The notes under the pieces are model-generated. The model made no database searches, had not been told where the DNA came from, and saw nothing but the letters and a program-made list of their open reading frames with translations. Below are positions 17,415 through 39,400 of a stretch of DNA of 64,000 bases, piece after piece. The stretch comes from Caulobacterales bacterium RIFCSPHIGHO2_01_FULL_70_19 (lineage in GTDB: Bacteria; Pseudomonadota; Alphaproteobacteria; Caulobacterales; Caulobacteraceae). The stretch spans positions 19,619-83,618 of the forward strand of contig MGLK01000026.1 in NCBI GenBank assembly GCA_001794825.1. Reading direction: 5' to 3'. Made by a program: the position numbers and the translations under genes. Numbering within the stretch: the stretch's first letter is position 1; every line of letters begins with the position of its first letter.

Positions 17415-17725
17415 GCGACCGGGAAGAGCACGAGCTGAAGACGCCGGAAAGCGTCGCCGCCGATCCGGAAGCCATCGAGATCATCCGGATGTGGTGGTCC
17501 AGGAACGAGCCGGTGATGTCGGTGAAGCCCGCCTTCAACGACCCCGCGAAGTTCGGCCAGCTGCTCGCCATCGCCGCCCGGCACATGGCCTATGGCTACG
17601 CCGTGCGGCACGGCCACGACGAAAAGCAGGCCTACAATCGAATTCTCCAGGGGCTGAGCGACGTCATCAAGGCGGACAATGTCCAGACGGTCGCCGAGCC
17701 GACGCCGACCGGGAGCGTGCAATGA
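17411..17725 (+). CDS. Small conserved hypothetical protein embedded in the pdh operon (DUF5076-like)
   Basis: 104 aa. ATG 17411 overlaps the pdhB TGA, and its own TGA overlaps the pdhC ATG (ATGA at both junctions). '[24 protein letters not shown]'. Confidence 0.7.
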
Positions 17726-19014: not shown

Positions 19015-19024
19015 GGAGCGCTCC

Positions 19025-23896: not shown

Positions 23897-24468
23897 TCGC
23901 GGGTCAGGGCGGAAAGATGGTTGGCGATATCGGTGAGGGTCATGACCCGCGCTTGCGGGCAGGCGGCGAGCGCGGCGGCGGGCATGGTCGGCGCGGCCGC
24001 TTCAGCCGGCGCCTGGACGAGGGCCTCGCCTCCGGCGGCGTGGATCGCGGCCAGGCCTCTTGCGCCATCCGCGTTCGCGCCGGTGAGGATGACGCCGACG
24101 AGCGCGTCGCCCCAGGCGTCTGCGGCGCTTTCGAACAGGACGTCGATCGACGGACGCGCGTGGTGAACCGGTTCGTCCGACGAAAGGGCCAGGGAACCGT
24201 CCTGCTCCACCAGCAAGTGATAGTCGGAAGGCGCGAAATAGACCTGGCCGGGAAGGGCCGGTTCCTTGTCTTCGGCCTCCTTCAGGGACGCGCGGCAGCG
24301 GGTCTGGAGGAGAGGGATCAGCGCGTTGCTGCGATCGGCCGGGACGTGGACCGCCACCAGCACGATGACGCGGCCCTCTGCTGGCAGGGCGGGCAGAATG
24401 TCCAGCAACGCCTGGACAGCCCCGGCCGAAGCGCCAATCACGACAGCCTTGCAGGCGGAGCGGGTCAC
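23893..24468 (-). CDS. cheB: CheB-type protein-glutamate methylesterase (catalytic domain only)
   Basis: 'VVIGASAGAVQAL', 'YFAPSDYHLL', 'PSIDVLFESAA', 'ILTGANADGARG'. 4-nt overlaps with both neighbours. Confidence 0.88.
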   Translation of the reverse strand: MTRSACKAVVIGASAGAVQALLDILPALPAEGRVIVLVAVHVPADRSNALIPLLQTRCRASLKEAEDKEPALPGQVYFAPSDYHLLVEQDGSLALSSDEPVHHARPSIDVLFESAADAWGDALVGVILTGANADGARGLAAIHAAGGEALVQAPAEAAAPTMPAAALAACPQARVMTLTDIANHLSALTRE

Positions 24469-25289
24469 GCGGCGCGCTTCCGGTAGATTTTCTCGGCTGG
24501 CACGAACTCCCGGAAGGCGTCGGCGTGGGCGGAGAACCGCAGACTCTCCCTCGATCCGAGGCCGAGGAAGCCGTGGCGCGGCAGGGCGTCCCGGAACAGG
24601 CCGATGGCCCGGTCCTGCAACGCCCGGTCGAAGTAGATCATGACGTTGCGGCAGGAGATCAACTGCATCTCCGCGAAGACGGCGTCCGTCACCAGGCTAT
24701 GGTCCGAGAAGACCACGCGGGAGCGCAGCGCCTTGTCAAAGACCGCCCGCCCATAGTCCGCGATGTAGTAGTCCGACAACGACGAGCGGCCGCCGGACTT
24801 CTGATGGTTCACTGTGAATTTGCGCAGCCGCTCCAGCGGGTAGACTCCGGCCTCAGCGGCTCGCAGGGCATCAGGGTTGATGTCGGTCGCATAGAAGAGA
24901 GTCCGGTCAAAGAGGCCTTCCTCCTTGAACAGAATAGCCATGGAGTAGACCTCCTCGCCGTGGCTGCAGCCGGCTATCCAGACCTTGAGCGAGGGATAGG
25001 TCTTCAGATGCGGGAGCACCAACTCGCGCAGGGCCCGGAAATAGCCGGGGTCGCGGAACATCTCGCTGACCTGCACGGTCAGGTAGCCCAGCAACCGGGG
25101 CAGCATGGCTGCGTCGTGCAGAAGAGCGCCCTGCAGGGCGGAGAGCGTGTCGAAGCCCAACTGTTCGCGGGCCTGAAGGACGCGCCGCTTTATGGACGCC
25201 CGGGCGTAATGCCGGAAGTCGTAATGGTAGCGCTGGAACAGCGCCTCCAGCAGAAGCTGGATTTCAAGATCTTCGGAACTGTCGGGCAC
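24465..25289 (-). CDS. cheR: CheR-type protein-glutamate O-methyltransferase
   Basis: 'SEMFRDPGYF', SAM site 'VWIAGCSHGEEVYSMAI', 'ATDINPDAL', 'ISCRNVMIYF'. Confidence 0.9.
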   Translation of the reverse strand: MPDSSEDLEIQLLLEALFQRYHYDFRHYARASIKRRVLQAREQLGFDTLSALQGALLHDAAMLPRLLGYLTVQVSEMFRDPGYFRALRELVLPHLKTYPSLKVWIAGCSHGEEVYSMAILFKEEGLFDRTLFYATDINPDALRAAEAGVYPLERLRKFTVNHQKSGGRSSLSDYYIADYGRAVFDKALRSRVVFSDHSLVTDAVFAEMQLISCRNVMIYFDRALQDRAIGLFRDALPRHGFLGLGSRESLRFSAHADAFREFVPAEKIYRKRAA

Positions 25290-25296
25290 TGGGTCC

Positions 25297-28200
25297 TCAG
25301 CGCGCCATCCAGACCCGGACCAGCGACAGCAGCTTGTCTACGTCGATGGGCTTGGCCATGTAATCGTTGGCGCCCGCCGCCAGGCAGCGTTCCTGGTCGT
25401 CCGGCATGGCCTTCGCGGTCAGCATGAGGACGGGCAACTTCGACCAGCGACCGTCCTCGCGAATGCGGCGCGTCGCAGTCAGGCCGTCCATCACCGGCAT
25501 CATGACATCCATCAGAACCAGATCCACTTCGCGGGCCGGATCGCCATCGGCGGCGGCCAGGACGTCCAGCGCCTCTTGACCGTTCCGTGCGATCTCAACA
25601 AGGGCTCCGCGAGGCTCGAGCACATTGGTCAGCGAATAGACGTTGCGGACATCGTCCTCGACGATCAGGATTCGTCGGCCCTCAAGAACGGCGTCGCGGT
25701 TGCGGGCCTGGCGGATCATTCGCTGCTGTTCGGGCGGCAGGTCCGAGACCACCTGATGCAGGAAGAGGGAAACCTCATCGAGCAACCGCTCGGGCGATTT
25801 TGCGCCCTTGATGATGATTGAGCTGGAGTAGCGGCGGAGCTGCTGTTCATGCTCCGGGGAGAGGTCCTTGCCGGTGTAGACGATCACCGGCGGGAAAGGC
25901 TGCTCGGGATCGCGGCTAAGCGTCTCCAACAGCGCGAAACCGTCCGCGTCCGGCAGAGTGAGGTCCAGCACCATGCAGTCGAAGGTCTGCCGGGCCAACT
26001 CCTCGAGGCACTCGGCCGCGGTCCCCACCCCGACGGTCTCGACCTGGCCGGAGGAGAGCAGAGCGCGGACCGCGTCGCGCTGGACCGGATCGTCCTCGAC
26101 GACCAGCACCCGGCGAACGGTCCGGTCCAAGGTCTCCTCCAGATGTTTCAGGGCTGCGGTGAGGTCCTCGCGCCGAGCGGGTTTCATCAGGTAGCCGACC
26201 GCGCCCAGAGCGAGGGCGGTCTGGCTGTGGTCGGCGGCGGATACGACATGGATCGGGATATGCCGGGTCTGGTCGTCGCGCTTGAGGCTGTCGAGGACGG
26301 TGAGCCCGGACTGGTCCGGCAAGCCGACGTCCAGAACGATGGCGCTCGGACGATACCGGCGGGCCATCCTGATCGCCTCCTCGGCGGTGCTGGCCACCAG
26401 GCACTGAAACTCCATCTCGCGAGACAGGTCCCGCACGATTTCGGCGAACCGGTCGTCGTCCTCGATCACAAGGAGCACTCTGCGTGCCTCGACGAGGTGG
26501 TCGCGATCGTCCTCGATCGCTCGCGGGGCCCGCATCGGGCGCGCGGGCGGCGCGGCGGGGGTGGGGGACTGGGAGGGCGCCGGCGGCGCGGCGCGCGGCT
26601 CGATCCGCTCTGGATCGTAAACGGCCGGGAGCGTGAGGGTGAAGGTGCTGCCCCTGCCCGGTTTGCTTTCCAGCGTAATGGTTCCTCCCAGCAGGCGGGC
26701 CAGTTCGCGCGAGATCGAAAGGCCCAGGCCAGTCCCGCCATACCGGCGGCTGATGGTGCCGTCGGCCTGCTGGAAAGCCTCGAAGATCGCCGATCGCTGG
26801 TCGGGCGAAATGCCGATGCCGGTGTCCTTCACCGCGAAGGCGATGTGTTCGCCGGCCTTCTTGATGGTGAGGCGGACGCCGCCGGACTCGGTGAACTTGA
26901 AGGCGTTGGACAAGAGGTTCTTGAGAATCTGCTCCAGGCGCTGCCGGTCGGTCTCGACCAGATCCGGGACAGCCTTGGCGATGTCGATCTCGAACGAGAG
27001 GCCTTTCTCGTCCGCGATCGGCTGGAAGGTCTGGAGCAGGTCCCCGGACAGGCGTTGAGGCGAAACGCCCTCGGGCTTCACCACGATATGCCCGGCCTCG
27101 ATCTTGGAAAGGTCGAGGATGTCGTTGATCAACGTCAGGAGGTCGTCGCCCGAGGACTGGATCGTGCGGGCGTAGCGCACCTGTTCCTCGGTCAGATTGC
27201 CCTCGGCGTTGTCGCCCAGGAGCTTGGAAAGGATCAGCAGCGAGTTCAGCGGCGTGCGCAGCTCGTGCGACATGTTCGCCAGGAAGTCGGACTTGTACTG
27301 ACTCGCCCGCTCAAGGTCCTGCGCCTTCACCGTCAATTCCGCGCCGGCGCGCTCCAGGTCGTCGCGCTGGGCTTCCAGCACCTGGGCCTGTTCCTCGAGC
27401 TGACTGTTGGTCTGCTCCAGCTCGACCTGCTGTTGCTCCAGCCGGACCTGGGACTCCTTAAGGGCGCGGCCCTGTTCCTCCAGTTCTTCATTGGAGACCC
27501 GCAGCTCCTCGCTTTGCACCTGGAGCTCTTCGGCTTGCCGCTGGGTCTCCTCAAGGGCGTCCTGGAGGTCAGCGCGGTAACGGGCCGACCGGAGCGCCAC
27601 GCCCATCGCCGGGGCCGCCTGCGACAGGAGTTCGCGGACCAGGTCGTTCGGGGGCTGCAGGAAGCCCAGTTCGACAACCGCGTTGACCACGCCGTCGGCC
27701 ATGGCGGGGGCGATCAGCAGGTGCCGCGGCTTGTCGCGACCGAGGGCTGAGCCGAAGGTCAGGTAGCCGTCCGGCACGTCGGCCAACAGGCGCGGCGCCC
27801 CTTCCGCAGCCACCTGGCCGAGCAGGCCTTCCCGGACATGGAAGGCTTGAGGCACCGGCGCATCCGAGGGCACGCCCAACGTCGCAGCCCGGCGAAACTG
27901 ACCGCCCTCGCCCTTGAACAGGGCGCCGGCCGGCGCATCCGTATATCGGGAGAGAAATTCGAGAATCCGTTCGCCCAGTTCCGTGACCGTGCGGTCGCCG
28001 CTCATCGCTTCGGCCAGGCCGACCTGACCCGCGCGCAACCAGTCCTGACGGCTGCGCGCCCGCGCGCTGCGGCGGATCAGAAGGAAGACCGTTACAGTGA
28101 GGACAATGCCCAGGAGTGCAGACAGCACCCCGCTGATCGTCGCCGTCCGATATGCGGCCTCCATCCGCGCCAGCCATTGCTGCCGCTCACGAAGCCCTTC

Positions 28201-28731
28201 GGCGCTGATCGCGGCGACGCGTTCGCGGATCGCCTCCATCTCGACCTGACCGCGGTTGGTGTTGACAGCGGCGAGGGCGGGCTGAAGACCGCCGGTCCTG
28301 CGCAGTTCGACCGTCCGGCGCAGTTCCTCCATCTTGGCGTCGACGTGGCGACGCAGCTGGGCGATGCTCGACTGCTGACGCGGATTGTCGGCCGTCAGCT
28401 GGAGGAGGTTGTCGATATGGCCTTCCATATCAGCCTCCGCCCGCTCGTAGGGCTCCAGATACTGATCGCGCCCGGTCAGAATGTAGCCGCGCTGCCCGGT
28501 CTCCGCGTCTTGAGCGGCCGCGAGCACCGCGTCAGCGCCGACCAGGACAGAGTGGGTATGGACGACGCGCCGGCTGTTGGCCCGCAGGTCCTGGATATTC
28601 GCGTAGGCGATGACGCCGCTGAGGACAAAGAAGCCCAGAACGGCGGCCAGACCTCCGGCCGCCCACAGTTCCACTCTTGAGCGACCTGCCGGTTCACCGG
28701 CGCCAAACAGCGACATGGGGACCTCATTCAT
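25297..28731 (-). CDS. Hybrid sensor histidine kinase (CHASE3-TM-GAF-coiled coil-HisKA-HATPase-3xREC)
   Basis: TM plus CHASE3-like N-terminus. Q/E-rich coil '[21 protein letters not shown]'. H-box '[11 protein letters not shown]' (His codon 27265-27267). '[13 protein letters not shown]'. Three receivers ('VLLVIEDDD', 'VLVVEDDP', 'ILIVEDDV...DVMMPVMDG'). Start set at ATG 28731; other starts are possible. Confidence 0.9.
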
Positions 28732-29109
28732 GACCCGAGCCTTGCCTAAAGGGTGGGAGCGAGAAGGCAAGGGGAGGCCTGGAGGCCGGCGCGGGCGACA
28801 CACGATCGGCCGCGATTGCGGCCGGATCGTCGGCGTTGGCGTTTGCTGACCGGACCGGTTATGGCGGTATGGCGGGGAGTGGAGCCGAGGCTCGCCTTCG
28901 ATCGCTCGCGCGTCACGCGGGTCGGATCCGGAAGGGCGAGCTGTTCTGGCTTTCGACGGCGCAGCAGGCGACCTCGCCGCCTGGCCTGGAAGGTTGGACC
29001 AAGCTTGGCCGGGCCGGTCCCAGGTGAGGTGCTGTCCACACGACTGTCAGGGTCGTCCTGCGGCGCTCGTTTGATCGAAAGTCGATTGCCGCGACGCGAA
29101 CCCTGCTCC

Positions 29110-29325
29110 TCACTTGCCCGGGCCGCCAGACGCCTCGATGTCGCGCACCCTCCAGCTGTAGGGACGTCGGTCGCCGGGGAACTTGAAGTTCGCGCCCGGT
29201 CGTCTCATCGCTGCGGCGACGTAGGACGCGTTCGGCTGCGCGTGGCCGTCCTCGCCCAGAGGCAAGTCAATCCGGAAAGTTCGGACGGGAGTCCCCGCGC
29301 GCAGCCGCTCGACGATCTTGATCAT
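29110..29325 (-). CDS. Small hypothetical protein (possible last gene of the methyltransferase-kinase operon)
   Basis: 71-aa ORF with GGAG 4 nt upstream of ATG 29325, 43 nt downstream of the previous gene. No domain recognised. Confidence 0.4.
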   Translation of the reverse strand: MIKIVERLRAGTPVRTFRIDLPLGEDGHAQPNASYVAAAMRRPGANFKFPGDRRPYSWRVRDIEASGGPGK

Positions 29326-29368
29326 GATACTCCGATCCCGGAAATTCTGGTGACGGCAGGCGCGCCGC

Positions 29369-30097
29369 TCAGGTGCTTTCCGGATACCAATGCAGTGACC
29401 GGTAGCAGGTAGGGGCGTCCCCGGAGTTCAGCCGCCCGATGCGGTGGCCGACGCCCTTGTAGACGTTGCAGCTCTGCAAGACCTTCTTGAAGGAACCTCG
29501 CTCGCCCGCGCCTGACCCTTTGTGCAGCAGATGGTCGGCGCAGATCTGGGCGATGATGGAGAAGACGTCCATGTGGGCCGTCGGGACCCGGGCTTGGCGA
29601 AACAGGTCCTGGACGGGGTCCTCGAGCTTGTCGATCGGCAGTGCGAACTGCGCCACCAGGGCGTCGCCGAGCTCCGCCATTGTCTGGATCTGGTGGTGAA
29701 ACACGGGGTGGCCGAGATTGCTCTCGTCGAGGTCGTAGTGTGCGCCGTAGATGTGGGTCAGCACCCGATCCTTGTAGCGGAAATAGCCGACGTGCGTCTT
29801 GAAGTGCGTGGCCAGGTACTGGCCGGCCTGCAGAGCCGCGCGATCGAACGTCAGTCGCCCTTCCACCACGACGTATATCTGCTTGCCGGGACGATCACCT
29901 CGTTCCGGGACCTGAAAGACCACGGGCTTCATCGCCAGAACGATGTGATCGGCGCGATCCGGGGCCATGAAGTGAAAGACGTCGTCAAACGCCGCCGGTC
30001 TGATCGTGATGCCTTGCTGGATCTTGCGTGCGGACGCGCAGGCGTCGGTCCACGCCCTTTCGAGGCGGCGGGCGAGGCGGCCTTCGTCGGTATCCAT
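29369..30097 (-). CDS. Hypothetical protein (candidate effector of the methyltransferase-kinase operon)
   Basis: 242 aa from ATG 30097 ('MDTDEGRLARRLERAW...'), 10 nt after the stop of the receiver-like gene. His-rich segment 'YGAHYDLDESNLGHPVFHHQIQ'. No family recognised. Confidence 0.6.
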   Translation of the reverse strand: MDTDEGRLARRLERAWTDACASARKIQQGITIRPAAFDDVFHFMAPDRADHIVLAMKPVVFQVPERGDRPGKQIYVVVEGRLTFDRAALQAGQYLATHFKTHVGYFRYKDRVLTHIYGAHYDLDESNLGHPVFHHQIQTMAELGDALVAQFALPIDKLEDPVQDLFRQARVPTAHMDVFSIIAQICADHLLHKGSGAGERGSFKKVLQSCNVYKGVGHRIGRLNSGDAPTCYRSLHWYPEST

Positions 30098-30107
30098 TTT
30101 GTGGGTG

Positions 30108-31202
30108 TCAAAGGCCAAGGAGCGGCGCCCACTCTTCGTAGAAGCCGCTCTCGACCCGGCAAGCGCGGGCTCCATCTGGAACCCAGCTGCTTGAGCTGAT
30201 CGAACAGTCCGATCGGACGCAAACCGGACGGTGGGTGAAGGGGCAGTAGAAGCCGCCGTTGTCGCCATTGCAGCGCGAGCAGTCGTGTCGGGGGAGGGCT
30301 TCGCCGAGCTGCCGCTCGGCGATCGCCCGGTTCAGGGCGCCGATCGTTTCGGCCTCGTCATCCAGACCTTCGCCGAGGGTTTCCAGCCGATCATCAATGC
30401 GATCCCGCCAGAAGAACGATCCGCTGGCGGCGAAGGGGCCCTCGTAGCGGGCATCCTCGAAGATGCCGGCAAGCCGATCGAAGCCCGCAGCGTCACAGGC
30501 GAAATAGGCGCACAGCGCCTTCTCGTGAAGGATCGGTCCCGGATACTTCAGCACCGCGTTGAGAAGCAGGTGGCCGGCGACATAGGCGATCAGGCCAAGC
30601 TTTTCGCTGTCGGTCGGTTCGAGCTCCTCCGGCGCTGTCGCTCGAACGCGCTGCAGCAGGGCTCCGCTGGTCGCGCCAAAGGCGGGCGAATACAGCGCCA
30701 GCTGGCTTTCCATCTCGGGACGGCCCAGCAGGGTCGCCAGGACCGACGCGGGCGAGCGCAAGGGCAGATACGTGTCGCGATCATCAAGGATCGCTGTGCG
30801 GATGGCGTGGAACCCCCGGAAGGCCTGTTCGATGAAGGCGGCGGCCGTGCCGTCGGCCGGCACGCGCAGTTCAAAGAAGTTCGGCTCCTTCGGAAGCGCA
30901 TCGACCGTCTTGCGTGAGAAGTCCCCGACGGGAATCGCGCGTTGCTGGCTCCATCCGACGACGGTCGGCCCAAAGAAGCCGGTCTGGCCTCGCCTGGTCA
31001 GATCGTAGTCGGTGACGATCAGCACCGTGGTTTCGTCGACCAGTTCCTGCAGCTTCTGGAGCGGCTTGTCATGCTCCTCGGGCGACCAGGGACGGACGTC
31101 GACGTTGAGGTTGGCCAGCCGGCTCTCCAGGTCGGCCGTCAGCGTGGCGAGCTGAACCTGATCGTCGTCGACCAGCAGAAGGGAGGGGCGCACGTCAGGC
31201 AT
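30108..31202 (-). CDS. Receiver-like domain protein with unknown central domain and C-terminal Cys cluster
   Basis: N-terminus 'SLLLVDDDQVQL' (31161-31178) and 'VLIVTDYDLT' (31002-31019) fit REC beta1/beta3 acidic residues. C-terminus 'CSRCNGDNGGFYCPFTHRPVCVRSDC'. ATG shares a base with the upstream TGA. Confidence 0.65.
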   Translation of the reverse strand: MPDVRPSLLLVDDDQVQLATLTADLESRLANLNVDVRPWSPEEHDKPLQKLQELVDETTVLIVTDYDLTRRGQTGFFGPTVVGWSQQRAIPVGDFSRKTVDALPKEPNFFELRVPADGTAAAFIEQAFRGFHAIRTAILDDRDTYLPLRSPASVLATLLGRPEMESQLALYSPAFGATSGALLQRVRATAPEELEPTDSEKLGLIAYVAGHLLLNAVLKYPGPILHEKALCAYFACDAAGFDRLAGIFEDARYEGPFAASGSFFWRDRIDDRLETLGEGLDDEAETIGALNRAIAERQLGEALPRHDCSRCNGDNGGFYCPFTHRPVCVRSDCSISSSSWVPDGARACRVESGFYEEWAPLLGL

Positions 31203-33448
31203 CAGTCGGTTCCGGCCGGTAGAGGGAGACGAATCTGGACGCAGGTGGCGAACTCGGGCGGCGGCGGCACGACGTTGGCCGTCCCTCCGAACGCGGCCGC
31301 GCCGCGGCGAACCAGCGCCAGGCCGAGCCCCATGCCCGATCCAAGCGGGTCCTGACTGGAGTCCGTGGTGGTGAACAGGGGATCGAACACCCGTTCCTTG
31401 AGCAGGTTGGGAATGCCGATTCCGGTGTCCGCGACTTCCAGCACGTGGTGGCGGCCATCGTTCCAGGCGCGGAAGGTGATCCGTCGTGGGCCGTCGCCCG
31501 ACTTCGCCGTCACGGCCTTCAGGGCGTTAGTGTACAGGTTGAGCGCCAACCCGTTGTACAGCGAGGCGGGCACCAGGGGCGAGAGAAGGTCCGAGTCGGC
31601 CTCGATCTCCAGCGAGATGCCCCGGGTGTCTGCATAGCTGCCAAACACACGCGCGACCTGCTGCAGACGAGGCCGGACCTTGTACGGCTTGTTCGGCGTG
31701 ACGCGCGACCCCCGGATATAGCCTTGGGAGTAGGTGACGAACTCCTCGAGCTTGGCGATATGCCCAGCGAAGGCGTCGGCCGTCTCGGCGAAGGTCTCAT
31801 CCTTTCGCGCGAGCTCGAGCAGTTTGCGCTGCGTGTCCTTCAGCTCATGCAAGGCAATGCCGAACTCGTGGGTCATGAACCCGGCGACGACGCCGAGGAG
31901 GCTCATCACTTCAAGCTGACGAACGCGCTCCTGGGCGCTCTCATCCTGCTCCGTCGCCCGGCGTTCGGTCTGCGCCAGCGCCGAAACGATGCGATTCTTC
32001 TCGTGTTCCGGGATCGTGGAACTGGCCTCGATGGCCTCGATCGCCTCGCGGGTCTCGGTTCGAAGCGCCTTCAGCTTCTCCTTGCGCTCAGCCTCTTCTT
32101 CGTCCCGCTGGATGGCGCGGTCGGCATAGGCGATCAGCTCGGCGGCGCCGCGAACGATGTCCTGCAGCTGGGCGAAGGCGAGGTTCTCGACGAAGCCTTC
32201 CCGGTCGGCCGAAGCGACCAGGCCCTCCGTCTCGTCCTGCTCAAGGCTGCGCCGGCCCGCCACCTGCACGACCCCCACCACCTGCGTCTGCTGGGGCAGG
32301 CGCAGCATGTAGTTCTCGGACGTCGAGCTGCGAACGGCCGCGTCCATGGGGTAGTGCTTGAGCGCGATGGTGGAACGGGGATCCCGGTAGTTCCGCCCGC
32401 TGTCAGCGGACAGGCGGAGCCAGTCGTCACCCGCCGCTCCATAAGGATAGACCCGGAAAGCCCGATCGAAGACCGCGACGCCAGAGTTGTCGACGATCCA
32501 GCGGCGCGCGCGCGGGCCGTCGACGCCGAGGCCCCTGAAGACGCCCTTGCGGTAAGGGAGAAAGCGCAGATCGGCCCAAGCCCGGCCGATCTCGTTGGCG
32601 TAGGTGTCCGTGACCTCGAGATAGGGCGCCTCATCGCCTTGGCGATACACAGTAATCGTAAGACGGTCGCCTGCGAGGTCGACCACGGCCTTCAGCGCGT
32701 ACGCCTCCAGGATTTCGGCGGCGACATCCCCTTTGGCGGCATCGTCCTTGTCGGCCGGGCGAATCTTGAGAACGAAACCAGGATCCTGCTCGGCGCCCGT
32801 GTCGCGCTCTTCATCCCTCAGGGGCGCGCCGTCCAGCAGGGTTCGCAAGGGAGTGAGCACGCCGATCGACCCAGTGCGAACCCGCTGCATGTTGATGAGG
32901 TCGACGCCGGCCCGAAGCTTGCTGACCGTCAAGGTGACGCCGGTCTGCGCTTCCTCGTGCAGGCGCTCGAGGGTGTAGGGGACGCGCACGTCTCCAAGCT
33001 CCTCGATCCGGTCGATCTCTGGCCAATCAAAGGTGGCTGTGAGTCGCGTCAGTCCTTTACTGTCACGGGCGACCGAGACCAGATGCAGGTGGCGGCCGAG
33101 GAAGCGCACCGCGAACCGGCCGATGCCCTTCTCCCCCGTGATCGCGCGGCCATAGCGAGGGCTGCGGCCCTCAGCCTCCTTGGCGCTGGTTCCGATTCTC
33201 ATCCACCCGTTGATAAACTGGTCGAGCGTCATGCCCAGACCGGTGTCCTGGACGACCAGCTTCCCGTCCGCCAGGGTGACGACGCAATCTTGCGAGTCTG
33301 CGTCGTAGGCGTTCTTGATGAGCTCGATCAGCGCGACTTCGGGCTGTTTGACGAGGCGCTCGCCGAGCTCGCGCAAGATGCGGCTCTCGATGGTGAAGGC
33401 CAACTCGCCTTTACCGACTACGTCCGGCGGAAGGGCGGGCTCGGTCAC
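31202..33448 (-). CDS. Dual GHKL protein: N-terminal MORC/Hsp90/MutL-type ATPase head fused to a C-terminal histidine-kinase core
   Basis: N-terminus: N-box 'ELIKNAYDAD' (33305-33325), G1 'QDTGLGM', G2 'GEKGIGRFA'. Central coiled coil. H-box 'FMTHEFGIALHEL' (His codon 31868-31870). C-terminal N-box 'LYTNALKAV', G1 'VADTGIGIP', F 'FDPLFTT', G2 'GSGMGLGLALV'. GTG 33446-33448 overlaps the MTase TGA. Confidence 0.8.
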   Translation of the reverse strand: MTEPALPPDVVGKGELAFTIESRILRELGERLVKQPEVALIELIKNAYDADSQDCVVTLADGKLVVQDTGLGMTLDQFINGWMRIGTSAKEAEGRSPRYGRAITGEKGIGRFAVRFLGRHLHLVSVARDSKGLTRLTATFDWPEIDRIEELGDVRVPYTLERLHEEAQTGVTLTVSKLRAGVDLINMQRVRTGSIGVLTPLRTLLDGAPLRDEERDTGAEQDPGFVLKIRPADKDDAAKGDVAAEILEAYALKAVVDLAGDRLTITVYRQGDEAPYLEVTDTYANEIGRAWADLRFLPYRKGVFRGLGVDGPRARRWIVDNSGVAVFDRAFRVYPYGAAGDDWLRLSADSGRNYRDPRSTIALKHYPMDAAVRSSTSENYMLRLPQQTQVVGVVQVAGRRSLEQDETEGLVASADREGFVENLAFAQLQDIVRGAAELIAYADRAIQRDEEEAERKEKLKALRTETREAIEAIEASSTIPEHEKNRIVSALAQTERRATEQDESAQERVRQLEVMSLLGVVAGFMTHEFGIALHELKDTQRKLLELARKDETFAETADAFAGHIAKLEEFVTYSQGYIRGSRVTPNKPYKVRPRLQQVARVFGSYADTRGISLEIEADSDLLSPLVPASLYNGLALNLYTNALKAVTAKSGDGPRRITFRAWNDGRHHVLEVADTGIGIPNLLKERVFDPLFTTTDSSQDPLGSGMGLGLALVRRGAAAFGGTANVVPPPPEFATCVQIRLPLPAGTD

Positions 33449-34824
33449 GAGGCAACCGCCGGCGAGAACAGTTCGCGAAGCAGCATGTTCAGCTGATTGA
33501 TCTCGATCTTCCGCAGACCGTTGCTGTGCGCGACGATGCGCCCGGCCAGGTCCATCGTCGCCGCTGTCGAGGCCAGTCTCGCCTTGCTCGCCTCGTCGAT
33601 ATTGTAGAGGCCGCAGACGCCGCCGACGGCCTTGGCGCCGATGATGTTGTTCACCGCCTTGGGAAAGCGCCCGCGGAAGCTCTGCGACATCAGCATGTCG
33701 GGCGTCGGCGGCATGACGAACCGCCACCAGACCTCCCGGCCGTTGCAGGTTGCGGTCTTTCGCTCTTCGATGGGGGTGCTCTCCAGGTACAGGAGGAGCT
33801 CCCGGCTCGCCTCTACATCCGTCCGGATCAGCCAACACTTGTGGCCGGGGTCGCGATAGTGGGCGTTGAAGGTCTGCCGATCGAGGACGGCGACATCGTT
33901 CGGCAGGTGTCGGAGGGTGGTGACGCAAGGAACGACGTCGCGGTCCACCCGCAGTCCCCCGTGCACCCGCTCCCCCTCGGTCAGGGTCAGGATTTTCTGC
34001 GTGCCGGGACTGAGACCGCGCACAGCGCGAGCTTCGCCGGCCTTTACATCGGCGCGGCGCCGGTAGCCGATCACGCCGCCTTCTCCGCCGGTAGGCGAGG
34101 GCAGGGGGGTATAGGCGCCGTCGGCGGTCTCTTCGAAGTAACGCCAGCGCCCATCCGTCCCGGTCTTGTCGATCAGGGTGATGCTCGCCGTAGTCAGGAC
34201 CGCGTCAAAGGTGCTGTCGACCAGACGGTAGACATCCACGCGCCAACCCTTGCCCTTGATGTAGTCCCGAAGCGCCTTCGCCGAGGGGCGAGAAACCCAT
34301 TCGAACGGGACCACCAGCGCGCACAGACCGTCCGGCTTGGTGCTGGCCAACGCCAGGAAGAAGAAATATTGCCAGGCGTTCGCCAGCCCGGACAGGCGCA
34401 CGCCCGTGCGCTCCTCGATCACCTTGCTGGCCGATCGCCGCCATCCGTCGGGCAGGTGCTGGTTGCGCACGAACGGCGGGTTACCGATGCACACGTCGGC
34501 CTGCATGCGGTCGGCCGAAAAGGCGCACTGGTCCAGAAGGTCTGCATTGTCTGGTAAGTCAGCGTCCCGGATCCGGGTCTTGTCCACCTCGAAGCCGATG
34601 TATTGATCGTACCGGCCGCAGCGGGCGAAACGTCCATCGCCGGCTCCGAAGTCCACCACCATGCCGACGTGTTCGCGCAGCTGGTGCACATGGTCCCAGG
34701 TCGCCCTCACCAGCTTGGGAGGAGTGTCGACCTGGCAAATGTTGAGGTAGAGCGCGATCGTCCGCTCGCAGCCCCATTCGGGCGCGAGTCGAGACGCCAC
34801 GGTCGTTTCGGCAGCCCCCTGCAC
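33445..34824 (-). CDS. N6-adenine DNA methyltransferase (gamma-class, Eco57I/TaqI-like) with large C-terminal target-recognition region
   Basis: Motif I 'VVDFGAGDGRF' (~34632-34661) precedes motif IV 'IGNPPFV' (NPPF codons 34471-34482). About 250 aa of C-terminal region with no recognised domain. Start codon (GTG 34824) uncertain. Confidence 0.8.
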   Translation of the reverse strand: MQGAAETTVASRLAPEWGCERTIALYLNICQVDTPPKLVRATWDHVHQLREHVGMVVDFGAGDGRFARCGRYDQYIGFEVDKTRIRDADLPDNADLLDQCAFSADRMQADVCIGNPPFVRNQHLPDGWRRSASKVIEERTGVRLSGLANAWQYFFFLALASTKPDGLCALVVPFEWVSRPSAKALRDYIKGKGWRVDVYRLVDSTFDAVLTTASITLIDKTGTDGRWRYFEETADGAYTPLPSPTGGEGGVIGYRRRADVKAGEARAVRGLSPGTQKILTLTEGERVHGGLRVDRDVVPCVTTLRHLPNDVAVLDRQTFNAHYRDPGHKCWLIRTDVEASRELLLYLESTPIEERKTATCNGREVWWRFVMPPTPDMLMSQSFRGRFPKAVNNIIGAKAVGGVCGLYNIDEASKARLASTAATMDLAGRIVAHSNGLRKIEINQLNMLLRELFSPAVAS

Positions 34825-35064
34825 CGTGCTTCTTCTCTTACGTCGTCTCGCCCTGACCGGCGTGGGCAGATGCTAGGGGAACAACCCTTGCTTATCAACT
34901 AAGCTGTTGATTCCGCCGTCGTTCCGATAGTCCTTGATCAGAGGACCTGACGCCGAGGTGGGCTTGGGGCGGCCCGCGTCGGCGTGGCAGGACGCCAGGG
35001 CTTGACGCAGGTCAACGTGAACCCCTCCTGCCCATGGAACAAGAAGCCGAAGGGAGGCCCAGCA

Positions 35065-36420: not shown

Positions 36421-37002
36421 CTACTTGGCGCCAGCCGTCGCCCGGTTCCGGGCCAAAGCCCGGTAAAGGGTGCTGCGTGAGACGCCCAAAGACGAGGCGA
36501 TTGCCTCCATCGTCTGATCCGGGTGGCTCAGGAGGAGCCGCGCCTGTGCGATCTGTCGCTCGCTGAGCGCCCGCTTGCGGCCACCCCTTCTCCCGCGCGC
36601 CCGTGCAGCCGCCAGGCCGGCCATGGTCCGCTCCCGAATGAGATCCCGCTCCATCTCGGCAAGCGCTGCCATCATGTGGAAGAAGAATCGGCCGGCGGGC
36701 GTCGTCGTATCGATGCCGTCCGTGAGGCTGCGGAAGCCGACCCCTCGACCTCTCAGTTCAGCGACCAGCTCCACCAGCTGGCGGACGGTTCGGCCGAGGC
36801 GGTCCAGCTTCCATACGGTGAGCGTATCGCCCTCACGCAAGTAGCTCAGGGCTTCCCTCAAGCCAGGGCGCTCGACCTGCGCACCCGAGGTGGCATCGGC
36901 GAAGATCTGGCTGCAGCCGGCGGCCCTCAGAGCGTCGGTCTGCAGATCAACGTTCTGATCCGCTGTCGAAACGCGGGCGTAGCCAACCATCATGTCGCAC
37001 AA
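36421..37002 (-). CDS. Serine recombinase (resolvase/invertase family)
   Basis: 'VGYARVSTADQNVDLQ' with the catalytic Ser, 'VWKLDRLGR', C-terminal HTH 'IASSLGVSRSTLYRAL'. The real start is probably one of the internal Met codons (MMVGYARVS). Confidence 0.92.
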   Translation of the reverse strand: MCDMMVGYARVSTADQNVDLQTDALRAAGCSQIFADATSGAQVERPGLREALSYLREGDTLTVWKLDRLGRTVRQLVELVAELRGRGVGFRSLTDGIDTTTPAGRFFFHMMAALAEMERDLIRERTMAGLAAARARGRRGGRKRALSERQIAQARLLLSHPDQTMEAIASSLGVSRSTLYRALARNRATAGAK

Positions 37003-37317: not shown

Positions 37318-39399
37318 CTAGGAGGCCTTGGCGACCTCAACCAATCTGCCTCCTTCCAGCTTAAGCACTCGATCTGCAGCCTCAATCAACCTAGGCCGAT
37401 GGGCGACGACGATTCGCGTAATTTTTAATCCCTTTACGAAATCGCAGATCAGCGCCTCGTTCTCGCTGTCCAAGTTCGCGGTTCCTTCGTCCAGGACGAG
37501 GATGGCCGGATCGCGGTATATGGCACGAGCCAGGATCACACGCTGAAGCTGTCCACCCGATAGACTGGTGCCCATGTCGCCAACGCGAGTCCAGTAGCCC
37601 ATCGGCATTTCCTCAATCTCGTCGGCGATCTTGGCCGCCGCGGCAGCCCGCTTCACACGGTCTAAATCAAGCTCAAGAGGAAAACCCGCGATATTCTCGG
37701 CGACGGGACCGGCGAGCAGCTGATCATTCTGGGCCACATAGCCGATGTGCCTTCGGACGGCGGAGCGAGTGTCTGGAGCCAATTCGCGTCCGTCGATCCG
37801 GATACGTCCGCTGGACGGCTCCAGAAGACCAAGCAGCAATTTGACCAACGTCGTCTTGCCTGCGCCGGAGGCTCCAACGATCGCGACGAACTCGCCTTGC
37901 GATATGACGAGGTCTAGGTCACGAAGCACCAACGGAAGTCCAGCGCCGTAGGCATAGGTCACGCCCTGCAGTTCGATCGCACCACGTACGCATATGTTTG
38001 CGCCTGCTACCGTCTCCGGCGGTTCCGACAGAATGTCCTTCAGACGCTCGAGATGGACGTCCAGCAGCCGGAACTGGACCAGTTGCAAGTTGAGGGCGTT
38101 TGCGCGCTCCGCGAATATCTGCCGATACGCCAAAAAGGCGACCAGCATCCCGATTGAGAGGCCGGATCCCGACAGTACCGACCTCGCGCCCAGGTACAGG
38201 ATGATCACCCCCTGCAGCCCCTGCAGGCCGACCTGCACCGCCGCGTTGATCGACTGCCATTTGGAGGCAAGCAGACCTGCGTTGAGCGCTCGGATGAGGA
38301 GGTTCTGCCACTGAGAATCTCGTGTGGTCTCCAGTCCGAGGACCTTGATGAGCGTGGCTCCCCTCACTGATTCTATGAGGTGGTTCTGCTCCTGAGCAGA
38401 CTCTACGACCTGTTCGGCGATTTGCCTGCGCACACGGGGGTAGATGAGCATCGTGACGCCAGCGGAGACGGCGGCGAACAGGGCCGCAATCAGAGCCAGC
38501 GGGGGCGAGTACAGCGTCATTATTGCCAACGCGCCGAGCGCCGTCAGCAGATCCAGCCCTGCGGTCAGCACGCCCTTGGTCAGAACCTCCTGCACGCTTC
38601 GAACGGAGTTCACCCGTGACAGGACATCCCCGACGGCTCTGACCTGAAAATAAGCCATCGGCAGGCGAATGAGCCGATGAACGACGTTACTGAGCAGTCG
38701 GAAGTTAAGGCCGGCTCCGACGATGTTGAGCGTCCAAGCTCGGAGGCCGTCGAGAAGGGCGTGGGTGACAACGATCACCCCGAAGGCCACGGCCAGCGGC
38801 AGCAGGATGTCTGCGTCCTCACCACTGATCGCGCGATCGAGGGTCAGCTGGGTTTGAAGCGGGAGCGCAAAGAGGACCACCTGGAGCGCCAGCGACACTA
38901 TCAGGGCTTGGCCGGCGACTGCATTCAGTCCGGACAGACCGCGAAACAGATCCCGAAGGCGCAGGGGCGTACGGGCATCGATGGGCCGGAACTCGGGGGC
39001 GCGATCGAGTTCCAGCGCCACCCCTGTGAAGGCGTCCGACAGCACTTTCCGCGGAACTTTCCGAGCTCCAACGGCGGGGTCAATGATTGTCGCCTCCCTG
39101 CCGTCGAAGCCGGAGAGGACAACGAAGTGGTCAAAGCGCCAGTGAAGGACCGCGGGGAGTTGAAGAAGCTCAAGCTCTTCTATTTCCACGCGGATGGGTC
39201 TCGTTCGCAGGCCGAGCGCTTCGCCCACGTCCATCAAGGTAGCGAGCGTGGCTCCGGCTGCCGAACTGGGGAACCGCTTCTTCAGATCCGTCAGGTCGAT
39301 CTTGTGGCCCCAGTAGCCCGCAACCATGGCGAGGCAAGCCAATCCGCAATCGGCCTGCTCCGCCGCGAGGATCATCGGAACATTGCGGCGTCTGGGCAT
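37318..39399 (-). CDS. Peptidase-C39-domain ABC transporter (PCAT, bacteriocin/RiPP exporter)
   Basis: C39 catalytic 'QADCGLACLAMVAGYWG' and 'FDHFVVL'. Six-TM region. Walker A 'GASGAGKTT', signature 'LSGGQLQR', Walker B 'ILVLDEGT'. ATG 39399 lies 2 nt from the HlyD stop. Confidence 0.9.
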   Translation of the reverse strand: MPRRRNVPMILAAEQADCGLACLAMVAGYWGHKIDLTDLKKRFPSSAAGATLATLMDVGEALGLRTRPIRVEIEELELLQLPAVLHWRFDHFVVLSGFDGREATIIDPAVGARKVPRKVLSDAFTGVALELDRAPEFRPIDARTPLRLRDLFRGLSGLNAVAGQALIVSLALQVVLFALPLQTQLTLDRAISGEDADILLPLAVAFGVIVVTHALLDGLRAWTLNIVGAGLNFRLLSNVVHRLIRLPMAYFQVRAVGDVLSRVNSVRSVQEVLTKGVLTAGLDLLTALGALAIMTLYSPPLALIAALFAAVSAGVTMLIYPRVRRQIAEQVVESAQEQNHLIESVRGATLIKVLGLETTRDSQWQNLLIRALNAGLLASKWQSINAAVQVGLQGLQGVIILYLGARSVLSGSGLSIGMLVAFLAYRQIFAERANALNLQLVQFRLLDVHLERLKDILSEPPETVAGANICVRGAIELQGVTYAYGAGLPLVLRDLDLVISQGEFVAIVGASGAGKTTLVKLLLGLLEPSSGRIRIDGRELAPDTRSAVRRHIGYVAQNDQLLAGPVAENIAGFPLELDLDRVKRAAAAAKIADEIEEMPMGYWTRVGDMGTSLSGGQLQRVILARAIYRDPAILVLDEGTANLDSENEALICDFVKGLKITRIVVAHRPRLIEAADRVLKLEGGRLVEVAKAS

Positions 39400-39400
39400 A

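Follow-up and report, generated by a model that had tools for sequence, protein, structure and literature searches.

Ambrosia (AbrR-AbrA-AbrB-AbrC-AbrD) was validated as a Pseudomonas aeruginosa defense system in a 2025 preprint (van den Berg et al., 10.1101/2025.09.30.679545), which is the only source on the system and offers its mechanism as a working model. The components are a methyltransferase (MTase), an HK/HATPase protein, a receiver (REC) protein, an HNH protein, and an XRE protein, and the system was reported mostly from Gammaproteobacteria. Defense needed every gene and was lost in AbrB N40A and AbrC D60A mutants. In addition, reporters placed at abrA and abrD were strongly induced on infection, phage methylated by AbrA was still restricted, and no self-toxicity was observed (10.1101/2025.09.30.679545). 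A module containing a HATPase_c_3 histidine kinase (HK), a response regulator (RR), and a methylase had been described computationally in 2021 (Bellieny-Rabelo et al., PMC8011034). Descent of this HEF_HK/Response_reg_2 module from paraMORC ATPases was proposed, and a Pectobacterium relative was induced in plant infection and competition stress, with NTP sensing raised as a speculation (PMC8011034). A paraMORC-type head is also required for defense by the Shedu protein VcSduA (PMC12137116).

In the window (the whole 64,000-nucleotide stretch of DNA that was analyzed), a cassette at positions 29369 to 34918 of the minus strand consisted of four genes with coupled translation, preceded by a conserved promoter. 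The features of the cassette and the open reading frame (ORF) that follows it are listed below with their basis.

34870 to 34898, minus strand: predicted sigma-70-like promoter (promoter scan)
33445 to 34824, minus strand: MTase, 459 aa (ORF, Pfam, PADLOC)
31202 to 33448, minus strand: sensor kinase (HK), 748 aa, AbrB family (ORF, domain matches, BLASTP)
30108 to 31202, minus strand: receiver protein (RR), 364 aa (ORF, AF2, Foldseek, profiles)
29369 to 30097, minus strand: U242, 242 aa, fourth core gene and candidate effector (ORF, conservation, AF2)
29110 to 29325, minus strand: 71-aa ORF (ORF)

The GTG of the HK gene overlapped the TGA of the MTase gene as GTGA, the HK and RR genes had a single base in common (TGATG), and 10 nt separated the RR gene from the U242 gene. 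Homologues of equal length backed the gene starts (748 aa for HK, 459 aa for MTase, 363 to 366 aa for RR, and 242 aa for U242). A preliminary description of this DNA had proposed a coupled operon of five ORFs; the four larger genes held up with their coordinates and junctions, but the 71-aa ORF did not. This ORF, which began after a 43-nt gap and had a GGAG sequence 5' of it, had no homologue in any related locus and lies outside the unit. An 80%-identical relative was syntenic at the DNA level across exactly the promoter and the four genes, and this synteny ended at the U242 stop codon. Synteny with the L087 cassette began at 34918. The promoter was located within the 94 nt 5' of the MTase start, which were conserved with related cassettes, and the scan placed a -35 element (TTGATA, 34898-34893) and a -10 element (TAGCAT, 34875-34870) around a 17-nt spacer. 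ATTGAT and TAG were invariant in an alignment of four related upstream regions, and an inverted repeat that overlapped the -35 element (ATCAAC-N6-GTTGAT) was present in the window and in its closest relative.

The HK protein joined a paraMORC/MutL-type GHKL ATPase head to a complete histidine-kinase core, as the preliminary description had recognized. The N-terminal head (HATPase_c_3, residues 36-145, 2.4e-19) contained E42, N46, D68-G70-G72, and G105-K107-G108-G110. HK also had a conserved middle domain (GFRVxPYG...DDWL, R416) and a coiled coil. The DHp domain (dimerization/phospho-acceptor helices), which carried THEFG (H527, codon 31868-31870), and the catalytic domain (HATPase_c, residues 636-744, 1.1e-21; N637/N641, D674-G676-G678, and G705-G707-G709) aligned to ZraS at 3e-11. 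H527 was kept in 46/46 diverged homologues, and the conservation pattern indicates that selection acts on the two ATP sites and on the relay residues.

AbrB is a 747-aa protein with the same HATPase_c_3 plus HATPase_c composition, and its N40 residue is located inside a KNAYDADA motif. In BLASTP comparisons, the first 399 aa of AbrB matched the window HK in the GHKL head (9e-20) and the middle motif (7e-5), and this fragment matched the HK of all 80 species-level loci, U242-type cassettes included, at about 1e-40. These alignments identify the window HK as a homologue of AbrB. HK Asn46 corresponded to AbrB Asn40 and RR Asp65 to AbrC Asp60, and both of these residues are essential in Ambrosia. 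The order of genes was also alike: an N6-adenine methylase, a kinase of about 748 aa with HATPase_c_3 and HK-core domains, a REC protein, and a small output protein.

The HK N-terminus matched NF050001 (BbrUII/HgiDII) at 1.7e-15 and the PADLOC REase_II models; the 2023 PADLOC set contained no other model that matched HK, RR, or U242. In BbrUII/HgiDII and Shedu type I-D/paraMORC3 (VcSduA), an N-terminal paraMORC-type GHKL ATPase likewise governs a DNA-targeting defense output. However, in those systems one polypeptide carries both the ATPase and its nuclease (DUF4263 or a restriction domain), whereas the window GHKL head is joined to a histidine kinase, from which the signal would exit by phosphotransfer. 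The HEF_HK/Response_reg_2 module shared with the cassette a soluble kinase built from HATPase_c_3, a DHp domain with an H-E-F motif, and HATPase_c, as well as a neighboring REC-like protein that had no recognized output domain and an adjacent methylase. In contrast, the window HK fell below the Pfam threshold (PF19191, E 0.31), PF19192 had no match among 66 receiver-slot proteins, the published set was tied mainly to C5 methylases and Vsr (e.g., on a C. jejuni plasmid), and the fourth gene was absent from the published description (PMC8011034). The preliminary description had not recognized the gene combination as a named system, a view that is superseded by the 2021 description of the kind (PMC8011034) and the 2025 validation of its relative Ambrosia (10.1101/2025.09.30.679545).

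The RR protein had been singled out as a divergent REC-like protein with a Cys cluster, and structural and profile searches agreed. Its AF2 model (pLDDT 79, pTM 0.82) resembled CheY and other REC structures (Foldseek probability 1.0, TM 0.53-0.64), and a broad profile of the RR family matched PDB REC domains at 6e-8. When this profile was aligned with AbrC, D65 fell on D60 (hhalign probability 85%). The REC residues were D12, D13, D65 (31008-31010), S96, and R113, and D65 was kept in 58/58 homologues (100%). A His-Asp relay, as originally suggested, is credible: H527 and D65 are invariant. A homologue of the kinase also operates in Ambrosia, which has been validated against phage. AbrC has 209 aa, whereas the 364-aa RR has an additional helical domain, a Cys cluster, and a tail. 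The helical domain included an HTH-like stretch (GPILSxxALCAYLA) and a conserved hairpin (Y253-G255...W265), the His/Cys cluster consisted of H306, C308, C311, C320, C328, and C333, and the C-terminal tail was strongly conserved (W340, P342, G344, R349, E351, E357, W358, P360, L362, and G363) and modeled with low confidence. Structural and profile searches matched nothing outside the REC domain, and secondary structure and the sequence motif make the C-terminal half a candidate wHTH.

A REC-like gene followed HK in 57 of the 80 loci, a U242-family gene followed the REC-like gene in 44 of them, and an Eco57I-type MTase was present in 37 of these 44 U242-type cassettes. The MTase, HK, and RR genes, together with a fourth gene (X), occurred as a set in Acidobacteriota, Alpha-, Beta-, and Gammaproteobacteria, Bacteroidota, Planctomycetota, Chloroflexota, Verrucomicrobiota, Deinococcota, Campylobacterota, and two archaeal lineages. 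The U242 type extended over many phyla and archaea, which differs from the mostly gammaproteobacterial Ambrosia. Horizontal transfer drove a patchy distribution, and the cassette was found on one Paraburkholderia plasmid and in 16 IMG/VR viral contigs. The four genes are a real co-conserved, horizontally mobile module and not chance neighbors, which was the point on which the preliminary description had staked its proposal.

The U242 model was confident (pLDDT 89.6, pTM 0.87), and Foldseek searches of PDB and BFVD found no match to it; the sequence had no match in PDB or Pfam and no detectable similarity to any nuclease. Clustering at 50% identity divided the family into 451 clusters, almost all of them stand-alone proteins of about 240 aa. 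Its consensus was WHxD...HPxYHxQxGG...PRxPHxPMD, with a conserved H-x-D...H...R motif and no conserved Lys; in the diverged family, H134 and R170 were invariant, and P131 (91%), D122 (88%), and H120 (86%) were strongly conserved. An enzymatic nature for U242 is a guess drawn from these five residues. The effector slot itself was modular, with U242-type proteins at 44 loci, a hydrolase of the metallo-beta-lactamase fold at 2, a further unfamiliar family at 10, and the HNH nuclease in Ambrosia.

The RR and U242 families co-occurred almost 1:1, which would fit a post-translational wiring in which phospho-RR binds and allosterically licenses a constitutive U242, or an MTase-U242 complex, and has no transcriptional role. 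The single promoter of the coupled operon means that HK, RR, and the effector are made together, and a conserved, low-confidence tail typically marks a segment that becomes ordered when bound to a partner. However, the strong induction of the abrA and abrD reporters argues against such wiring, and two apparent RR-U242 fusion proteins looked like frameshift read-throughs rather than genuine fusions. We give this explanation a minor but appreciable chance of being right.

The MTase was a gamma-class N6-adenine DNA methyltransferase of the Eco57I/TaqI type, in agreement with the preliminary reading of its motifs. It matched Pfam Eco57I (4e-11) and PADLOC MTase_II (1.5e-18), motif I (VVDFGAGDG, residue 56) preceded NPPF (residue 115; codon N115, 34480-34482), and its best solved relative was M.TaqI (PDB search, 1e-3, residues 30-241). 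Target recognition is presumably the task of the C-terminal half. In U242-type cassettes, the MTase gene either was immediately 5' of HK or followed the fourth gene directly. AbrA, in contrast, is of the MmeI/N6_Mtase type and had no BLAST similarity to the window MTase, and the cassette lacked an XRE regulator; therefore, regulation may differ from that of Ambrosia. The proposed self-marking by methylation is uncertain, given the restriction of AbrA-methylated phage (10.1101/2025.09.30.679545). Comparisons with Detocs (DtcABC), in which a His-Asp relay serves phage defense, and with BREX type 2/Pgl (PglW, PglX, and PglZ), which pairs an Eco57I/PglX-type adenine methylase with a kinase and a phosphatase, failed on sequence. 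No PADLOC match to the Dtc, PglW, PglZ, or BrxC models was found, the only hits being weak MTase-level matches to mad2 and DrmMI, and the sensor and effector domains of both systems were unlike those of the cassette.

The cassettes were surrounded by restriction-modification (R-M), Abi, and transposon genes, and the top families among 144 flanking proteins were C5 methylase, AbiEii, PAPS reductase, N6_N4 methylase, and Vsr. The preliminary interpretation was supported in this respect. The accessory region described for the window was likewise located, with a resolvase (36421-37002), an IS transposase (43196-43933), and a Tn5053-like tniABQ module (TniA/B/Q, 44496-48020); the L087 and L088 cassettes also adjoined resolvase and TniABQ genes. 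Elsewhere the same cassette adjoined a DUF4238 gene, and downstream flanks varied. One relative adjoined an MmeI-type enzyme and an HNH_2 gene, and a Paraburkholderia relative had an extra small HTH gene upstream.

Carriage on plasmids and next to transposon genes, the methylase-first order seen in many R-M systems, and the extra HTH gene in Paraburkholderia would suit an R-M or addiction module. HK and RR would then act like a C-protein that delays or tunes a toxic U242 relative to the methylase on host entry, a role proposed in 2021 for the HK-like/RR-like pair beside R-M genes (PMC8011034), and the module would also stabilize its mobile element by post-segregational killing, with no phage sensing. 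We consider both functions unlikely. As a timer, a 748-aa kinase that retains two ATP sites would be costly, and, in line with what had been noted previously, searches of the cassette proteins against Pfam, NCBIfam, and PADLOC recovered no recognizable restriction nuclease, no helicase, and no established output domain. Moreover, Ambrosia needs its N-terminal ATPase and phospho-acceptor Asp against phage, responds to infection in its expression, and shows no self-toxicity.

The infection- and stress-induced Pectobacterium relative and the NTP-sensing speculation would suit an epigenetic module, the alternative raised in the preliminary description, in which a cytoplasmic two-component system reads an internal signal (e.g., nucleotide pools) and accordingly tunes an orphan adenine methylase, and hence host expression, while conferring no immunity. 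This explanation is highly improbable in light of the patchy, transfer-driven distribution, the defense-gene neighbors, the conserved fourth gene with its modular slot, and the validation of homologous Ambrosia as defense. In addition, the methylase family was swapped among variants while the kinase stayed constant. The observations of the preliminary description were confirmed, and its interpretation was partly supported.

For the U242-type variant, we infer the biochemical steps below as well as a defense phenotype. The paraMORC-type GHKL head and middle domain of HK would be the sensor, and the head, like other GHKL clamps, would probably form an ATP-dependent dimer around invading or replicating DNA. 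The HK core would then be activated, H527 would autophosphorylate, and the phosphate would pass to RR D65; this relay is suggested because the catalytic residues are invariant and Ambrosia defense is lost in AbrB N40A and AbrC D60A. Phospho-RR would switch the output on. The likeliest route, which the Ambrosia reporter data suggest, is that the HTH-like/Zn-cluster half of RR binds DNA and raises transcription at the promoter 5' of the methylase. Since the four genes are in one coupled operon, such induction would need basal expression and positive feedback. Alternatively, the conserved RR tail may activate U242 directly.

The output would consist of the adenine methylase and U242, the latter in the slot of the Ambrosia HNH nuclease. 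U242 may be a new-fold metal-dependent hydrolase, probably a nuclease, built on H-x-D...H...R, that partners this methylase family and finds its target via methylation state or the methylase itself. The cassette is a variant of the Ambrosia kind in which U242 takes the place of the usual nuclease, and it probably, though not certainly, serves as an anti-phage/anti-plasmid module that places an R-M-like output under a dedicated cytoplasmic two-component relay.

The four cassette genes, together with the promoter region ahead of them and a small ORF behind them, were located as follows.

34893-34915 (-): inverted repeat ATCAAC-N6-GTTGAT, overlapping the promoter -35 hexamer
34898-34870 (-): sigma-70-like promoter, TTGATA-17-TAGCAT, hexamers conserved in four related cassettes
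33445-34824 (-): methyltransferase (MTase), 459 aa, length as in homologues
31202-33448 (-): kinase, 748 aa, length as in homologues; its GTG start overlaps the MTase TGA (GTGA)
30108-31202 (-): receiver-like protein, 363-366 aa in homologues; kinase/receiver junction TGATG
29369-30097 (-): U242, 10-nt gap behind the receiver gene; homologues of about 242 residues
29110-29325 (-): 71-aa ORF, 43-nt gap behind the U242 gene, GGAG ribosome-binding site upstream

The preliminary description had presented a unit of five head-to-tail minus-strand ORFs with close junctions, and this layout was confirmed in the window. Longer starts in the ORF list (908 aa and 299 aa) were rejected in favor of the homologue lengths, which were 748, 459, 363-366, and about 242 aa. 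The antisense ORFs at 31445-33496 (+), 33526-34557 (+), and 25849-27750 (+) (683, 343, and 633 aa) were high-GC artefacts and not genes.

The borders of the cassette were examined by comparison with L087, an 80%-identical relative. The DNA similarity spanned 34918 to 29369, which corresponded to the promoter region and the four genes and nothing beyond. The conserved non-coding DNA 5' of the MTase gene was only 94 nt long, and the next gene was a divergent Usp gene. The 71-aa ORF fell outside the block that was syntenic with close relatives, and a search of 89 related loci turned up no homologue. Its proposed membership in the unit was not borne out; it could represent either a spurious ORF or a small gene specific to this lineage. 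As for the inverted repeat at the -35 hexamer, it could be an operator for the receiver protein. It was present in an 86%-identical relative and absent from more distant cassettes, and we dropped the operator claim because the repeat was retained in the closest relative only.

Pfam PF07669 (4e-11), PADLOC MTase_II (1.5e-18), and a PDB match to M.TaqI (1e-3) identified the MTase as a gamma-class adenine methylase of the Eco57I/TaqI type. Motif I was found at residue 56, ahead of NPPF at residue 115, as the preliminary description had it. That description had also joined two GHKL domains in one 748-aa kinase, and the domain searches agreed. Specifically, the N-terminal part of the kinase matched HATPase_c_3 at 2.4e-19 (Pfam) and MutL in the PDB, and it resembled, by a match to NF050001 (1.7e-15), the heads of the BbrUII/HgiDII restriction enzymes. 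In the C-terminal part, the DHp and catalytic domains aligned with ZraS and other histidine kinases (3e-11). Conservation was judged from 46 homologues with identities down to 22%. Diverged homologues kept positions E42, N46, D68-G70-G72, and G105-K107-G108-G110 of the ATPase head either without exception or at 90% or more, and the C-terminal H527, N641, and G1/G2 boxes were invariant or nearly so. The middle-domain motif GFRVxPYG...DDWL and R416 were retained across the 46 homologues, and H527-E528-F529 was invariant in the kinase alignment (A1). Iyer et al. (2008) reportedly placed paraMORC/MORC-type GHKL ATPases in restriction-modification (R-M) contexts; the catalytic Glu, the Mg-binding Asn, DxGxG, the Gly-rich lid, and the R-M neighborhood of such ATPases were all present in the case of the window kinase.

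The receiver-like protein had no match in the family libraries. Over roughly the first 120 residues, its AF2 model (pLDDT 79, pTM 0.82) matched REC structures, CheY among them (Foldseek, probability 1.0, TM 0.53-0.64), and the broad receiver-family profile found PDB REC domains by sequence (6e-8). The REC active-site positions were D12, D13, D65, S96, and R113; the wider family had Lys at the R113 position, and D65 was conserved in 58 of 58 homologues. The rest of the protein comprised a helical domain, in which one stretch was HTH-like, as well as a conserved Y-G...W hairpin and a His/Cys cluster, and ended in a C-terminal tail that was conserved and of low confidence in the model. By inference, the C-terminal half might include a wHTH. 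These results upheld the earlier view of a divergent REC-like protein with a Cys cluster.

The fourth protein, U242, belonged to no family in Pfam, NCBIfam, or PADLOC. Its AF2 model was confident (pLDDT 89.6, pTM 0.87), and Foldseek returned no match in the PDB (best E 0.058, TM 0.12) or in BFVD. Sequence searches of the PDB with a narrow or a broad profile gave no match either. With the broad profile (A8), marginal matches to MAD2/HORMA-domain structures (E 1.3) appeared around the WHxD strand; an E of 1.3 is not significant, Foldseek gave no such match, and this relationship was rejected. The family was modest in size, with 451 clusters at 50% identity, and nearly all members were stand-alone proteins. 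Two database proteins, P0430 (596 aa) and P0369 (376 aa), carried receiver sequence joined to a complete U242 domain via low-complexity garbled stretches. We rejected them as natural fusions of the Rosetta-stone type; they were most likely frameshift read-throughs across the 10-nt gap.

The universally conserved residues of U242 were few (H120, D122, P131, H134, and R170), and their conserved context was WHxD...HPxYHxQxGG...PRxPHxPMD. They look like a putative metal/phosphate site, and this resemblance is the one basis for considering U242 a candidate hydrolase. Several known folds were weighed. An HNH nuclease was rejected, with no HNH Pfam match and an hhalign probability below 1% for both the narrow (A3) and broad (A8) profiles against the Ambrosia nuclease AbrD. 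A 2OG-Fe(II)/cupin site (H-x-D...H...R) was dropped in view of the 12-residue spacing and the lack of a jelly-roll match, and a PD-(D/E)xK fold was unlikely because Lys was conserved nowhere in the family. Of the two partners of a classical type II R-M system, a methyltransferase was present in the cassette, and searches of U242, the C-terminal half of the receiver, and the middle domain of the kinase (Pfam, NCBIfam, PADLOC, and Foldseek) detected no known nuclease fold or family, in line with the initial reading that no restriction nuclease was recognizable.

To examine how far the genes travel together, one genome per species was scanned. Full-length homologues of the kinase, with identities between 59% and 23%, turned up at 80 loci, two archaeal lineages among them. 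Partner genes were identified with iterated profile searches of every ORF in the loci. A receiver-like gene lay directly 3' of the kinase in 57 of the 80 loci, and an Eco57I-type methylase was present in 54, where it either immediately preceded the kinase or immediately followed the fourth gene. The fourth-slot genes (~213-277 aa) formed one family with U242 in 44 loci, which made the U242-type branch the commonest among the species-level loci examined. The cassette included an Eco57I-type methylase in 37 of these 44, and most of the other seven were cut by contig ends. The adjacency of the genes was therefore not fortuitous. The four genes were also found in 16 of 79 IMG/VR viral contigs with a kinase homologue and on a Paraburkholderia largidicola plasmid (NZ_AP023177.1; proteins WP_180727646/645/644/643), where the cassette adjoined an integrase and a ParDE pair; a megablast of the window cassette against plasmids found no close relatives. 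In the Paraburkholderia cassette (40% identical), a small 81-aa XRE-like HTH gene overlapped the methylase start (L081, 5331-5576). This gene is reminiscent of the Ambrosia regulator AbrR and of R-M C-proteins. Its homologues were not found upstream in the other loci, and an XRE regulator was rejected as a conserved part of the cassette.

Other loci carried different partners. In a second subtype of 10 loci (L016, L058, L062-L064, L068, L073, L074, L077, and L080; e.g., Pseudomonas sp. 21), the kinase was followed by a 395-450-aa protein with a REC domain and a helical part homologous to the window receiver (hhalign probability 93.7%). The next gene encoded 215-338 aa and was not detectably related to U242, with a similar H-x-YH-Q...P-x-P motif, and a neighboring methylase was often absent. 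In Scytonema and an Enterobacterales MAG (L065, 4701-5720; L078, 12716-13753), a 339-345-aa protein of one family occupied the slot after a short receiver-slot gene (232-233 aa); the L065 protein, in place of U242, scored as a metallo-beta-lactamase fold (Lactamase_B, 1.6e-10). Across the family, the methylases around the kinases were of Eco57I, MmeI, C5, or N6_N4 type, the receivers were short (canonical REC, ~190-210 aa) or long, and the output slot held an HNH nuclease, a metallo-beta-lactamase-fold hydrolase, U242, or a further family. What stays constant in this superfamily of methylase-linked modules is the kinase family; its partners are swapped. Modular effector exchange of this sort is typical of defence systems.

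The preliminary description had not recognized the gene combination as a named system and had offered it as a new kind. The claim of a new kind was not supported: the kinase is homologous to AbrB of Ambrosia, an anti-phage system validated in Pseudomonas aeruginosa by van den Berg et al. (bioRxiv 10.1101/2025.09.30.679545). Ambrosia consists of a HipB-like XRE regulator (AbrR), an N6A MTase (AbrA), an HK/HSP90-like ATPase (AbrB), a REC protein with a wHTH (AbrC), and an HNH nuclease (AbrD). Its defence needs every gene and is lost in AbrC D60A, as it is when conserved residues in any predicted functional domain are mutated; AbrB N40A and AbrD H60A are listed among such mutations in the supplementary primer and plasmid tables, and host toxicity was not seen (10.1101/2025.09.30.679545). 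We took the Ambrosia sequences from Table S1 of the preprint, in which AbrB was available as its N-terminal 399 aa. In BLASTP, the window kinase matched AbrB residues 1-399 at 9e-20 (GHKL head) and 7e-5 (middle motif), and the fragment matched the kinases of all 80 loci, those in U242-type cassettes included. Both kinases were of the same type, ~750-aa soluble proteins with a HATPase_c_3 head and a histidine kinase core. The N40A primer encodes ...AYDADA, which equates AbrB N40 with window N46 in the KNAYDAD motif common to both.

A REC protein directly downstream of the kinase was likewise shared. The broad receiver profile (A4) aligned with AbrC at an hhalign probability of 85% (E 6.6e-6), with D65 opposite D60, although the narrower profile (A2) fell short of significance and no similarity was found outside the REC domain. 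AbrC is only 209 aa, and the window receiver is longer. The window cassette also had an N6-adenine MTase, but of another family than AbrA, to which it showed no BLAST similarity; an AbrA-like MTase occurred in only one of the 80 loci (L072). The HNH output AbrD had no counterpart in the window, where U242 took its place, and no AbrD homologue was found in the 80 loci. AbrR was without a counterpart ahead of the window cassette. The newness lies in the variant: another methylase family, a long Cys-cluster receiver, no XRE regulator, and an output protein without a match to a known fold where Ambrosia has a nuclease.

A related module was described computationally, without experiments, by Bellieny-Rabelo et al. 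2021 (PMC8011034). It comprises soluble HK-like proteins (HATPase_c_3, HEF_HK, and HATPase_c) derived from paraMORC ATPases, of which 91.6% are linked to RR-like proteins (Response_reg_2); the R-M genes around the pairs are mainly C5 methylases and Vsr, and the pairs were suggested to regulate R-M (PMC8011034). A C. jejuni conjugative plasmid showed this type (HK, RR, and dcm). The window proteins had the same architecture and the invariant H-E-F, below the Pfam thresholds, and DNA methyltransferase/R-M genes adjoined window-type cassettes as well. In the window kinase, PF19191 scored E 0.31 and 12 bits against a cut-off of 24.1, at the expected position (residues 518-569), and only 1 of 46 family members gave a match. 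PF19192 matched neither the window receiver, nor any of 66 receiver-slot proteins, nor the C. jejuni response regulator. Our literature search found no later paper on the HEF_HK/Response_reg_2 module or on Ambrosia.

No PADLOC system model fitted the cassette, which gave MTase-level and N-terminal REase_II matches only. BREX type 2/Pgl combines PglX with the PglZ phosphatase, the PglW Ser/Thr kinase, and the BrxC/PglY ATPase, and Detocs consists of DtcA (TPR-HK), DtcB (buffer REC), and DtcC (REC-effector). The comparison with these two systems in the preliminary description did not hold up on sequence: none of the five ORF products matched PglZ, PglW, BrxC, or PglY in PADLOC, no such genes were present, and the kinase, receiver, and U242 matched no Dtc model. 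In the case of MADS, whose mandatory genes are mad6, mad7, and mad8, there was a weak MTase-level match to the methylase mad2 (1e-6) and to no other mad model. DISARM was excluded by the PADLOC models, and MANTIS/Gao_RL is a different system (AAA+ ATPase, helicase-nuclease).

The window copy lay in a lower-GC island at ~20500-48100 (GC 0.60-0.66 versus 0.69-0.72 in the flanks). The PDH E2 and lpd genes (17491-20428) immediately precede this island, and TniQ (48020) marks its other end. The proposed accessory region with an IS, a Tn module, and a recombinase was recovered in the following island features.

22757-28803 (-): chemosensory-like cluster of hybrid kinase, CheR, CheB, and REC-HisKA-HATPase protein
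36421-37002 (-): serine resolvase
37318-40651 (-): bacteriocin-type exporter pair, C39-peptidase ABC transporter (738 aa) and HlyD-family protein (416 aa)
43196-43933 (+): IS DDE transposase
44496-48020 (+): TniA(rve)-TniB-TniQ module, Tn5053/Tn402-like

The hybrid kinase of the chemosensory-like cluster had CHASE3-GAF and three receiver domains (1168 aa), and the same cluster was found a few kb from the cassette in L085. Behind the exporter were a 388-aa protein without a family match and a 331-aa protein with a sub-threshold DUF6624 match. In the relatives L087/L088 (86% identical), the same resolvase and tni genes lay upstream of the cassette, no more than about 2.6 kb away; the window had the exporter operon and the IS between them. 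The cassettes of L083 and L087 also had an lpd-type gene (Pyr_redox_2, 467-468 aa) at most a few kb away, and the lpd vicinity therefore looks like a recurrent integration site. A 76%-identical relative adjoined an MmeI-type enzyme and an HNH_2 gene, and a 70%-identical relative adjoined a DUF4238 gene; depending on the sample, the downstream flank held conjugation genes, an IS, or housekeeping genes. In a set of 144 flanking proteins from the 80 loci, C5 methylase, AbiEii, PAPS reductase, N6_N4 methylase, and Vsr were the most frequent families, which is a signature of defence islands and mobile elements.

We read the window cassette as a probable infection-triggered, R-M-like immune cassette of the Ambrosia kind because its kinase core is constant and its partners are swapped, the usual pattern in defence systems. 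The defence reading draws support from the homology to Ambrosia, which has been validated, and from the genomic context. The paraMORC head of the kinase would be the infection sensor, phosphate would pass from H527 to D65 of the receiver, and the receiver would then activate both the methylase and U242. If Ambrosia is a guide, the likeliest switch would be the cassette's own promoter; the main alternative would be direct licensing of U242 by the conserved receiver tail. The near-exclusive pairing of U242 with an Eco57I-type methylase suggests that the two act together; U242 may rely on the methylation mark, or the methylase may serve as its specificity subunit.

A bolder reading would make U242 a new-fold, metal-dependent nucleic-acid hydrolase activated directly by the phospho-receiver, and the kinase head a DNA clamp that reads the methylation set by the partner methylase. 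The conserved ATP sites, the relay residues, the U242/methylase pairing, and the conserved receiver tail would all fit. However, infection induces reporters at the abrA and abrD positions, and phage methylated by AbrA remains sensitive to Ambrosia (10.1101/2025.09.30.679545); with this transcriptional induction and lack of protection opposing it, we consider the joint reading improbable. If it were true, the detection of unmethylated DNA would become a phosphorylation signal, and a His-Asp relay would separate restriction recognition from cleavage.

For the immune reading that we prefer, the consequences extend to the whole family. The AbrB-type kinase with a MORC head is the defining feature of a superfamily of methylase-linked immune modules that is large and mobile, and experiments so far cover one branch, Ambrosia with its HNH output. 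The U242-type branch reaches archaea, plasmids, and proviruses with an output protein that lacks a known fold or function. Working out the cassette would bear on the role of this new effector family, on how a GHKL/MORC ATPase senses infection, and on whether methylation marks self or creates the target. Eukaryotic MORCs share the ATPase-sensing question, and the mechanistic details of most of their functions are still elusive (PMC8011034). For annotation, four families that include proteins labelled 'hypothetical protein', 'sensor histidine kinase', and 'class I SAM-dependent methyltransferase' become recognizable as one defence-type cassette.
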